Sequence record: PV691511.1
Length of the DNA: 64,000 nt
From: Escherichia phage WPEC2
Strand: one strand, 5' to 3'
Part shown: one piece after another, positions 35,452 to 35,973 of the stretch
Layout: every line of letters begins with the position of its first letter
How positions within the stretch are numbered: position 1 is the first letter of the stretch
Notes under the pieces: generated by a model
What the model saw: only the letters and a program-made list of their open reading frames with translations
What the model was told of the DNA's origin: nothing
The model's database searches: none
Made by a program: the position numbers and the translations under genes

Positions 35452-35973
35452 TTAACTCCCCTTTGGTAGATAGAAACCATGCACTTTATCTCGATAAACA
35501 AGACGCATATCGCGTTCCCAGTGTGTCCTTATATTCCGTTTCTTGAAGTATAGAGCACCTTTAGTAACATCTAAAACAGATCGCAATTCAGGAAAATGTT
35601 TCTCTAAATAAAGTAAACGCTCCGCTATTGCTTTTGCTTCTTGCCACTTATCTTTCTCTGTCACGTTAAAAGTTTTCGCATATGAGAATTGTCCTTTCTG
35701 GAACAAGACTCCTCTGACTGTGTTAGGAAAGTAGGCATCATTTCTTCTATTGATTACCACATTCCCAACGGCATTCATTCCTTTTTTACCCAGACCTCGA
35801 CCTTCTGCGTAAATTGCACAAGCTAATAGAATTTTATCATTATATTGCTTTGTACATTTGTGAACTACTTTAGCGGTTTTTACGTTTGCAGCTTCGGCTT
35901 TCGCCACAACAGGTGTAAATGTAAAAGCAGTTAAGGATAGTAACGCAACTGTTACAAAGTTTTTTATCAGCAA
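35452..35973 (-). CDS. secreted cell-wall hydrolase, SleB/CwlJ (Hydrolase_2) family, with N-terminal signal peptide
   Basis: 173 aa; signal-like N-terminus MLIKNFVTVALLSLTAFTFTPVVAKA; domain motif LLACAIYAEGRG...GMNAVGNVVINR...VLFQKGQF. Confidence 0.65.
   Translation of the reverse strand: MLIKNFVTVALLSLTAFTFTPVVAKAEAANVKTAKVVHKCTKQYNDKILLACAIYAEGRGLGKKGMNAVGNVVINRRNDAYFPNTVRGVLFQKGQFSYAKTFNVTEKDKWQEAKAIAERLLYLEKHFPELRSVLDVTKGALYFKKRNIRTHWERDMRLVYRDKVHGFYLPKGS

Follow-up and report, generated by a model that had tools for sequence, protein, structure and literature searches.

A SleB/CwlJ-like cell wall hydrolase with a predicted export signal among the replication genes of an Escherichia phage: a candidate accessory endolysin

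What is the role of a cell wall hydrolase that appears to carry an export signal and is encoded in the replication arm of a phage genome? The question is raised by one gene in the 64,000-nucleotide stretch of Escherichia phage WPEC2 (PV691511.1; hereafter the window), the source of which is a Phapecoctavirus. The original prediction, based on a signal-type N-terminus and a SleB/CwlJ catalytic region, proposed an exported peptidoglycan hydrolase, either a secreted endolysin or an enzyme acting early on the wall. Our analysis supports the proposed enzyme, and the two functional options correspond to the two readings left after it. The gene very probably encodes an exported SleB-family wall hydrolase. 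For the full mechanism, that of an accessory SP-type secretory endolysin acting together with the main lysozyme, we consider the chances to be about even. Export, signal cleavage, murein cutting in E. coli, timing and the role in lysis are what we infer here. The gene is already known as an annotation: its orthologs have carried the label 'putative cell wall hydrolase SleB' or the label 'endolysin' since 2012, more than 60 near-identical genomes in GenBank have it annotated, and a homolog's signal peptide has been noted previously.

Catalytic domain and N-terminal signal

The following features define the protein:

[quoted passage not shown]
35470..35790, minus strand: Hydrolase_2 (PF07486) catalytic domain, residues 62-168
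35803-35805, minus strand: GAA codon of Glu57, aligned to the catalytic Glu of SleB (Y-x-E-x-R-G)
35818..35856, minus strand: conserved cysteine pair, Cys40 (35854-35856) and Cys52 (35818-35820)
35896..35973, minus strand: predicted Sec signal peptide, codons 1-26, from hydropathy and the -3/-1 rule

The SleB/CwlJ catalytic region was confirmed by Pfam, by PDB sequence matches and by a structure-model match. In the Pfam profile search PF07486 scored 64.3 bits (gathering cutoff 27; E=1.8e-17), the match covering profile positions 3-100 of 100. The PDB sequence search matched only 4F55 and 4FET, both of them catalytic domains of SleB (E about 1e-7). An AlphaFold (AF2) model (pLDDT 85) likewise had structural matches limited to 4FET and 4F55, with prob 1.0 and TM 0.72-0.75 (target-normalised). 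This model was built with 50 diverse family members as input; 15 close homologs gave a pLDDT of 61.7. The Y-A-E-G-R-G motif aligns with Y-G-E-S-R-G of SleB, and Glu57 is invariant in the 50-sequence family alignment (it is 'E56' in alignments A1-A3, from which the start codon was left out). [quoted passage not shown] The protein belongs to the SleB/CwlJ (Hydrolase_2) family and most likely works as a lytic transglycosylase through Glu57. Judged by its sequence, it is not SleB proper: it scores 52.4 bits against the cutoff of 236.5 of NCBIfam TIGR02869 (the equivalog model of the spore cortex-lytic enzyme SleB), with only profile positions 79-159 matched, and the Pfam search did not find in it the PG_binding_1 domain (PF01471), which accompanies PF07486 in the Bacillus SleB sequences matched.

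A Sec-type N-terminus had also been proposed, and inspection bears this out. MLIKN (n-region, with K4) is followed by FVTVALLSLTAFTF (h-region) and then by TPVVAKAEA, of which TPVVAKA makes up the c-region. The h-region comprises 14-19 uncharged residues, is rich in Leu, Phe and Val, contains no Gly and is followed by Pro21. AxA motifs provide candidate signal peptidase I (SPase I) sites after A24, A26 and A28. The call was made by inspection and from conservation among homologs. Signal-like N-termini are kept in the aligned homologs of FV3, CB7V, T5-like and PAK_P3-like phages. A signal peptide has been reported for the Certrevirus homolog CB7_83 (PMC7344957); PMC10698182 reports no signal peptide. 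A lipoprotein was ruled out, there being no lipobox before Cys40 (context V-H-K-C). Stephanstirmvirinae and Vequintavirinae homologs all have the cysteine pair (alignment positions C39 and C51), which Bacillus SleB lacks; we suggest that Cys40 and Cys52 may form a disulfide in the periplasm.

Might the N-terminus remain uncleaved as a signal-anchor(-release) segment that keeps the enzyme inactive and tethered to the inner membrane until depolarisation occurs, as in SAR-type endolysins? Residues 6-24 are uncharged and, at 19 residues with 42% Ala/Ser/Thr, would be long enough to span the membrane. Moreover, among Stephanstirmvirinae homologs the h-region is 85% identical, compared with 70% for the mature catalytic domain and 52% for the c-region. 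Conservation of an h-region above that of the catalytic domain is atypical of a disposable signal and could reflect either a retained anchor or a constraint at the RNA level. However, synonymous sites in the 5' coding region are strongly conserved too, so the extra conservation need not reflect protein function. Furthermore, the c-region, though variable among homologs, retains small residues at -1 and -3, and the T5-like and CB7 homologs have h-regions of just 12-13 residues with clear AxA or SxA sites; that of the T5-like homolog (about 12 residues) is too short for a stable anchor. The composition itself (no Gly, 42% Ala/Ser/Thr, a strongly hydrophobic Leu/Phe/Val-rich core, then Pro21 and three AxA sites) does not fit a SAR endolysin. 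We therefore regard an uncleaved anchor as highly improbable; by inspection, the n/h/c layout with an SPase I site is that expected of an SP-endolysin signal. As to an RNA element in the 5' coding region, the single-sequence fold gave z=0.01 with no Rfam match, and the RNAalifold covariation term was +0.88 without compensatory support. More diverged homologs differ in this region. On these results we propose no RNA structure there.

Expression signals and neighbourhood

The features around the coding sequence are as follows:

34767..35450, minus strand: three small downstream ORFs (orthologs of gp068-070; 94, 76 and 63 aa; soluble)
35980-35985, minus strand: Shine-Dalgarno AGGAGG (cctcct on the plus strand), 6 nt upstream of the TTG start
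36006..36034, minus strand: sigma-70-type promoter, with -35 TTGCAA at 36029-36034, a 17-nt spacer and an extended -10
36035..36054, minus strand: GC-rich hairpin GAGGGGGA-GAAA-TCCCCCTC, between the stop of the TerD gene and the promoter
36072..36674, minus strand: upstream TerD-domain gene (phAPEC8 gp066 ortholog; PF02342, E=1.5e-28)

The gene has expression signals of its own, and the hairpin, promoter, Shine-Dalgarno sequence and TTG start are all conserved across six diverged lineages. AGGAGG is invariant in them, as is the TGnTAnAAT core of the promoter, and five of the six also keep the -35. The extended -10 reads TGT-TATACT (36006-36014, minus strand), and the promoter is of the type annotated as 'host dependent' in phAPEC8 (TTGACA-17-TATACT). 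The hairpin resembles a terminator; its T-tract is weak here, and in L012 there is a canonical T-run. Its stem is retained with sequence variants in the six lineages.

The original prediction placed the gene outside any lysis cassette, and indeed it belongs to the arm for replication and nucleotide metabolism, with a Ter-like cluster on one side and glycosyltransferase/replication genes on the other. A conserved TelA / vWA-TerF-like / TerD cluster precedes it, although in the window this upstream neighbourhood is interrupted by a breakpoint at 37536/37537. The absence of an adjacent holin gene holds as well: there is no small membrane protein within about 1.5 kb on either side. Neither downstream gp068-070 nor upstream gp064-066 have TM segments, and none of gp068-070 is holin-like. 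In other words, the hydrolase has a TerD gene and soluble small ORFs as neighbours, with no holin or spanin, which is not the setting of a cassette endolysin.

Such a setting lends some weight to a different role. It is possible, though we hold it unlikely, that the hydrolase is a non-lytic periplasmic enzyme, remodelling the wall or otherwise auxiliary from early infection and contributing little to the final lysis. It could loosen or turn over murein for cell enlargement, take part in the recycling of anhydro-muropeptides and UDP-sugars, or change the envelope against superinfection. This would agree with the host-type promoter and weak TTG start kept in six lineages, with the synteny with envelope- and stress-type rather than lysis genes (TelA / vWA-TerF / TerD upstream, glycosyltransferases downstream), and with the position of the FV3 homolog next to MoxR and rIIA. 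Timing data come from PAK_P3 gp151, a distant, 33%-identical homolog from a Pseudomonas phage, the transcript of which is already present at 3.5 min and is similar at 13 min (log2FC 0.62, not significant). The authors of that study treated gp151 as an auxiliary gene that might explain the accumulation of cell-wall precursors (PMC4933390). The presence of a canonical lysozyme and spanins elsewhere also agrees with a non-lytic role. On the other hand, the Pectobacterium phage homolog CB7_83 has been reported as toxic in E. coli ('data not shown') and Cronobacter phage CR3_087 was cited as implicated in lysis (PMC7344957). In addition, Tgl, an experimentally studied secreted second lysin, acts in lysis.

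Relatives, their lysis genes and the role of the hydrolase

The orthologs phAPEC8 gp067 and phi92 gp170 share length, TTG start, promoter, synteny and signal with the window gene; identity is 98.8-99.4% within Phapecoctavirus and about 75% to phi92-like phages. The window gene and these orthologs are the same gene, with no difference of substance. Genes of this type are core across Vequintavirinae and Stephanstirmvirinae. The Vequintavirinae SleB-like proteins (CB7_83, CR3_087, rV5/FV3 ORF002) are about 34-36% identical to the hydrolase over the full length and have in common with it the N-terminal signal peptide, the cysteine pair, the catalytic Glu and the presence of a separate canonical endolysin. 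Their surroundings differ: in Certrevirus the gene is followed by a small membrane protein (a holin candidate), whereas here the downstream ORFs are soluble; in rV5-like phages it abuts rIIA (in FV3 it is beside MoxR and rIIA), whereas here the upstream genes are Ter-like. More distant are PAK_P3 gp151 (Nankokuvirus) and T5-like bas26_0074, with about 33-37% identity in the catalytic domain and hydrophobic N-termini. Both genes, like that of the hydrolase, are found among replication/early genes of phages with a separate endolysin. Compared with the hydrolase, gp151 has a longer linker behind its hydrophobic N-terminal segment, whereas the T5-like protein, at 149 aa, is the shorter one. In a plasmid collection the only matches were an rV5-like phage under a wrong label and distant 'cell wall hydrolase' genes from alphaproteobacteria or Bacillus.

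The suggested search for lysis genes elsewhere was successful in part: relatives encode a T4-like lysozyme and Rz/Rz1 spanins, and a holin could not be named. In phAPEC8, gp172 (166 aa) is a free-standing PF00959 T4 E-like lysozyme with the catalytic E/D/T context and no TM segment, and the i-spanin gp121 and o-spanin gp120 are encoded by overlapped Rz/Rz1 genes. The spanins are about 51 kb and the lysozyme about 77 kb away from the hydrolase gene, and in relatives these genes map outside the window. When all ORFs of phAPEC8 were scanned crudely by hydropathy, several annotated small proteins with 1-2 TM segments came up (for example gp051, gp002, gp020, gp016, gp139 and gp094). As none of them adjoins the hydrolase, lysozyme or spanin genes, no holin can be named in phAPEC8. 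None of three further neighbours is a holin: gp171, adjoining the lysozyme, has no TM segment, and the genes upstream of the spanins encode acidic, soluble proteins (gp122 and gp123). At 95% identity or more, the lysozyme was found in 64 phage records and the hydrolase also in 64; the lysozyme was found at 60-90% in 68 records and the hydrolase at 60-80% in 67, and the two co-occur 1:1 in relatives. One Phapecoctavirus has been listed with both PF00959 and PF07486 proteins (PMC10793346).

A canonical lysozyme and spanins encoded elsewhere argue against the hydrolase as the main endolysin, not against an exported peptidoglycan hydrolase. It might nonetheless be the principal endolysin if, for example, the T4-like lysozyme were virion-associated or dispensable. 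The hydrolase matches PHROG 938 'endolysin' (E=1.4e-18), RefSeq uses the same label, the gene is core in two subfamilies, and the SKA64 paper calls it the sole endolysin. However, the SKA64 claim stems from a lysozyme gene mis-annotated as 'tyrosine 2,3-aminomutase', and the lysozyme is free-standing, has its catalytic residues in context, lacks a TM segment and occurs in step with the hydrolase. T5-like and PAK_P3-like phages that bear SleB-like genes have separately identified endolysins, and a sole exported enzyme, expressed early and unregulated, would be hard to time. We consider this reading very unlikely. We take the hydrolase not to be the canonical endolysin of its phage, Phapecoctaviruses having the soluble T4 E-like lysozyme and Rz/Rz1 spanins elsewhere, and the database label 'endolysin' on the hydrolase gene is probably misleading. 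The rV5-like, Certrevirus, T5-like and PAK_P3-like lineages likewise have both a canonical endolysin and a SleB-like gene with a signal. The type of the canonical endolysin varies (GH19 in LNA4, M15 in Septuagintavirus and CB7, gp28 in PAK_P3), and the SleB-like gene stays.

If the hydrolase is an accessory secretory endolysin, events might proceed as follows. Transcription by host RNA polymerase would start from the gene's own extended -10 promoter of sigma-70 type, and translation would be inefficient because of the conserved TTG start. The Sec pathway would export the product by its classical n/h/c signal peptide, signal peptidase I probably cleaving after A24, A26 or A28, and the mature enzyme would probably be oxidised in the periplasm (Cys40-Cys52). 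There it could build up at a low level from early or mid infection, restrained as long as the membrane stays energised and the wall is being repaired. Once a holin collapses the proton-motive force, the hydrolase would help to destroy the sacculus rapidly, cutting glycan strands beside the main lysozyme.

A broader proposal, which we think quite unlikely, is that signal-bearing SleB/CwlJ enzymes form a conserved class, distinct in function, in large virulent phages of Gram-negative bacteria (Stephanstirmvirinae, Vequintavirinae, T5-like, PAK_P3-like), being early, tightly dosed periplasmic murein-remodelling factors rather than endolysins. Dosing would be set by the TTG start and by a nucleotide-level constraint on the first 45 codons. 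Such enzymes might prime or remodel the sacculus, or, jointly with the neighbouring Ter-like genes, manipulate envelope stress and the recycling of muropeptides. In any case, a second murein hydrolase, predicted to be exported and apparently driven by a host-type promoter, is retained beside the canonical endolysin in many coliphages that are candidates for therapy (phAPEC8-, rV5- and T5-like). Should it prove to be an exported lysin that attacks E. coli murein independently of a holin, it would be a candidate scaffold for enzybiotics and would help to set the timing of lysis; as a remodelling factor, it would represent a new kind of host-takeover function.

Comparison with SleB and secreted lysins

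The germination-specific cortex-lytic enzymes SleB / CwlJ of Bacillus (4FET, 4F55) share the catalytic fold and the Glu of Y-x-E-x-R-G with the hydrolase, which differs from Bacillus SleB in lacking an N-terminal PG_binding_1 domain and in being phage-encoded and, by prediction, periplasmic. SleB needs muramic-delta-lactam, which is absent from E. coli murein, and the activity of the hydrolase on the host wall is consequently not guaranteed.

In the SP-endolysins (Lys44 of Oenococcus phage fOg44 and Lys of Fletchervirus F352) we find the n/h/c signal and Sec export that are predicted for the hydrolase. The Campylobacter Fletchervirus SP-endolysin depends on Sec and a holin (PMC7692668); a holin is the activator for SP-endolysins, and the lysis genes of F352 are scattered, as here, rather than gathered in a cassette. 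However, Lys44 and F352 Lys, with SLT or muramidase domains, are the sole endolysins of their phages, whereas phages with the hydrolase have a second, canonical lysozyme.

In Kayvirus, Tgl is a second endolysin beside a canonical, holin-dependent one; it resembles lytic transglycosylases, is secreted by Sec, is transcribed by host RNA polymerase and brings about lysis only after collapse of the proton-motive force (PMC7150955). Tgl has an unrelated, IsaA/SceD-type fold, serves a phage of a Gram-positive host (Staphylococcus) and is encoded near lysK/holA; its function is experimental, whereas that of the hydrolase is deduced. Nonetheless, the hydrolase resembles Tgl in being a small enzyme of lytic-transglycosylase type with a Sec signal (cleavable in Tgl), encoded in addition to a canonical endolysin and downstream of a host-type promoter.

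Catalytic domain and predicted export signal

The window belongs to Phapecoctavirus (Stephanstirmvirinae). Up to 37536 its match to Escherichia phages WPEC1, WPEC4 and WPEC6 is 100%, and its identity to phAPEC8-like phages is ~98%. The hydrolase, which is phAPEC8 gp067 and phi92 gp170, is 98.8-99.4% identical to proteins in 64 phage records, labelled 'putative cell wall hydrolase SleB', 'cell wall hydrolase' or 'endolysin'. It is found at 60-80% identity in 67 further records, including phi92-like Justusliebigvirus and more diverged Phapecoctavirus such as phiWec190. OM362897.1, CP057073.1, MG065650.1 and OP562383.1 include 'Campylobacter phage B15' and 'Acinetobacter phage ABPW7' records with a hydrolase 98.8% identical to E. 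coli phapecoctavirus proteins, and a 137.6-kb E. coli 'plasmid', the size of an rV5-like phage, bearing an rV5-type SleB-like gene (36% identical).

Features of the hydrolase gene in the window
35452-35973, minus strand: hydrolase ORF, 173 codons (ORF listing)
35803-35805, minus strand: Glu57 codon, aligned with the SleB catalytic Glu
35971-35973, minus strand: TTG start
35980-35985, minus strand: Shine-Dalgarno AGGAGG, 6-nt spacer to the TTG start
36006-36034, minus strand: sigma-70-type promoter, TTGCAA-17 nt-TATACT, extended -10 TG
36035-36054, minus strand: GC hairpin between the TerD stop and the hydrolase start

The protein is a member of Pfam Hydrolase_2 (PF07486, SleB/CwlJ domain; residues 62-168, E=1.8e-17, 64.3 bits vs a gathering score of 27) and also matches PHROG 938 'endolysin'. 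In the PDB, its sole sequence matches were 4F55 and 4FET, both SleB catalytic domains. AlphaFold gave a poor model from 15 close homologs (pLDDT 61.7) and one of pLDDT 85 from 50 diverse members of the family; Foldseek with the latter found 4FET and 4F55 in the PDB (prob 1.0, TM 0.72-0.75, target-normalised) and, beyond these two, no match at E<1. Across the 50 aligned sequences a single acidic residue is invariant, the Glu in Y-A-E-G-R-G; it is aligned to the Glu of SleB Y-G-E-S-R-G that is described as essential for lytic transglycosylase activity (PMC12331253). The model and the protein alignments A1-A3 were built from window:35452-35970:-, where the start codon is absent, so that full-length numbering turns their E56, C39 and C51 into E57, C40 and C52. 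Assignment to SleB proper was rejected: the TIGR02869 equivalog score is 52.4 bits against a cutoff of 236.5, and the PG_binding_1 domain is absent.

By hydropathy inspection, the N-terminus (MLIKN-FVTVALLSLTAFTF-TPVVAKAEA) comprises an n-region made basic by K4, a Gly-free h-region rich in Leu, Phe and Val, and the helix-breaking Pro21, with three AxA-type sites, after A24, A26 and A28. Such an n/h/c architecture is that of a classical type I signal peptide and not of a Gly/Ala-rich SAR domain. An unusually conserved h-region does hint at a retained SAR-like anchor, but the composition and the AxA sites argue against it, and we disfavour this reading. Signal-like N-terminal segments also start the homologs of rV5-like FV3 (MKIKIFAIILSAFLSLPVVAAP), Certrevirus CB7V (MKKSIAAIFAACTLSLAPATSFA followed by KE) and T5-like GreteKellenberger (MKAALLLIAALTYSFNSHA followed by TY), the h-region of the last being too short for a stable membrane anchor. 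The Cys pair C40/C52, which Bacillus SleB lacks, is invariant in Stephanstirmvirinae and found also in Vequintavirinae, and would be consistent with a periplasmic disulfide. A signal peptide has been reported for the homolog CB7_83 of Pectobacterium phage CB7 (PMC7344957). For near-identical phages, PMC10698182 states that no signal peptide was detected; we give this negative little weight because the same paper claims at least 99% identity of the hydrolase to T4 and lambda lysozyme entries. The original prediction of a SleB/CwlJ catalytic region is thus upheld by the domain, family, sequence and fold matches, and that of a Sec-type N-terminus by the n/h/c layout, the AxA sites and the signal-like starts in other lineages.

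Gene neighbourhood and other lysis genes

In phAPEC8 the hydrolase gene shares its strand with replication and nucleotide-metabolism genes, in the order TelA, vWA-TerF-like, TerD, hydrolase, three small soluble ORFs, four glycosyltransferases, primase/helicase, methylase and DNA polymerase I. This gene order is kept in phi92-like phages, phiWec190 and three metagenomic relatives (53-61% identity). The Ter-like cluster (TelA, vWA-TerF-like, TerD; 36072-37536, minus strand, and relatives' loci L009-L013) is always 5' of the hydrolase in Stephanstirmvirinae and metagenomic relatives; that of phAPEC8 additionally has the 'tellurite resistance' gp057. A perfect sigma-70 consensus (TTGACA-16 nt-TATAAT, 5' TG, 12/12 matches) at 37001-37028 (minus strand), in the gp064-like ORF, is placed to drive the gp065-like and TerD genes. 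In rV5-like FV3 the homolog lies instead between MoxR ATPase and rIIA. Synteny with Ter, rIIA and MoxR genes speaks for a rival reading, a non-lytic early wall-remodelling or auxiliary enzyme, as does the classing of PAK_P3 gp151, a 33% identical homolog, as an auxiliary gene by its authors (PMC4933390). The sole timing data found also come from gp151: its normalised transcript level changes little between 3.5 and 13 min (log2FC 0.62, not significant; S5 table of PMC4933390).

At 37536/37537 the window is broken: to the left of this point the sequence runs collinear with phAPEC8 ~78.0-115.5 kb, and to the right it follows the opposite phAPEC8 strand, downward from ~31.9 kb. The WPEC1, WPEC4 and WPEC6 matches at 100% end exactly at this point. 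The junction occurs in 0 of 50,697 phage genomes, and its two halves lie in separate places in 68 records; it stems either from a genuine rearrangement or from a chimeric assembly. Of the vWA-TerF-like gene (phAPEC8 gp063, 264 aa) the breakpoint leaves only ~117 C-terminal codons; the hydrolase gene and promoter are untouched. Consequently, the genes right of 37537 (NinI-like phosphatase, DprA-like gene and others) are not native neighbours of the hydrolase. In PAK_P3-like CHA_P1 (L007, 3181-3783) a SleB-like gene is followed by one ORF and then a DprA-like gene resembling, by eye, window ORF 38895-39500 (plus strand); in the window this ORF and the hydrolase are close only through the breakpoint.

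Lysozyme and spanin genes lie outside the window, in every close relative. In phAPEC8 they are gp172, a 166-aa T4 E-like lysozyme (PF00959 match, T4-like MLRxDEG...YxD...T context, no TM segment), and gp121/gp120, overlapped i-spanin and o-spanin (lipobox LMMTGC) directly 5' of the terminase gene and also given in PMC6139136. By hydropathy, no TM-containing ORF adjoins the hydrolase in the window or in phAPEC8. The claims that the gene sits among replication genes, away from lysis genes and with no adjacent holin, are therefore correct here, and the suggested search elsewhere yielded, in relatives, an endolysin and spanins. Certrevirus differs in having a small membrane protein 3' of the homolog (PMC7344957), where we see a hydrophobic 41-aa ORF; the hydrolase adjoins soluble ORFs. 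A hydropathy scan of phAPEC8 outside the window found small proteins with signal-peptide-like N-termini (gp228, gp249, gp035, gp142) and small 2-TM proteins (gp051, gp002, gp020, gp016).

That the hydrolase might be the main endolysin is disfavoured by 1:1 co-occurrence with the T4-like lysozyme, which is found in 64 records at ≥95% identity and in 68 at 60-90%, parallel to hydrolase counts of 64 and 67; a Phapecoctavirus genome announcement likewise has both PF00959 and PF07486 proteins (PMC10793346). The 'single endolysin' statement for SKA64 (OM362897.1) arose because its lysozyme gene is mis-annotated 'tyrosine 2,3-aminomutase'. Canonical endolysins are GH19-like in Vequintavirus LNA4, M15C in Septuagintavirus, gp28 in PAK_P3 and the T5 peptidase in T5-like phages, which also carry a SleB-like homolog. 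In Certrevirus the type is M15 or lysozyme-like (PMC7344957). Since the canonical type varies by lineage while the signal-bearing SleB-like gene persists, these comparisons argue that the hydrolase is not simply a redundant endolysin.

Expression signals and the conserved 5' coding segment

In a six-lineage alignment neither the TGnTAnAAT core nor AGGAGG varies; five of the lineages have the -35 TTGCAA, and at least five start with TTG. The hairpin is retained with sequence variants, its version in the relative's locus L012 being a canonical terminator with a T-run. The rare TTG start (35971-35973), extended -10 promoter and 5' hairpin (36006-36054) are common to relatives with 53-75% protein identity. 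The promoter resembles the annotated 'host dependent' promoters of phAPEC8 (TTGACA-17-TATACT). With its own promoter, hairpin and weak, conserved start codon, the gene would form an independent unit readable by host RNA polymerase. Such conservation suggests selection for independent, low-level expression, and the promoter and weak start would suit a potentially toxic product that is expressed early and at a low level.

Codons 1-45 (35839-35973, minus strand), covering the putative signal peptide and mature N-terminus as far as Cys40, exceed the catalytic domain in conservation (85% identity in the h-region vs 70% in the mature domain) and, of 299 sliding windows over 4.5 kb, make up the most conserved island. 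Among amino-acid-conserved codons, synonymous differences number 4/40 in codons 1-45 vs 41/78 in the rest against phiWec190 (Fisher p 3e-6), and 3/37 vs 43/90 against Paula (p 1e-5), with p from 3e-6 to 1e-3 across three comparisons. More diverged relatives vary here, and for this segment structure tests gave no support for RNA structure and Rfam no match. Possible causes of the conservation are constraint on the mRNA where a toxic exported protein begins, or patchy recombination.

Putative role and known precedents

The observation is confirmed and its interpretation supported, for a feature already known as an annotation in the 64 near-identical records. The best-supported reading is that of an accessory 'SP-type' endolysin, which would be exported by the Sec pathway, processed by signal peptidase and cleave glycan strands in the periplasm. 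This model agrees with a report that CB7_83 is toxic in E. coli and with the citation there of CR3_087, the Cronobacter phage CR3 homolog, as implicated in lysis (PMC7344957). On paper, the hydrolase resembles an SP-endolysin. Two precedents studied by experiment fit the model: Kayvirus Tgl, a second endolysin of lytic-transglycosylase-like type that is secreted and read by host RNAP, gives lysis only once nisin collapses the pmf (PMC7150955), and the Fletchervirus SP-endolysin requires Sec and a holin in a phage with scattered lysis genes (PMC7692668).
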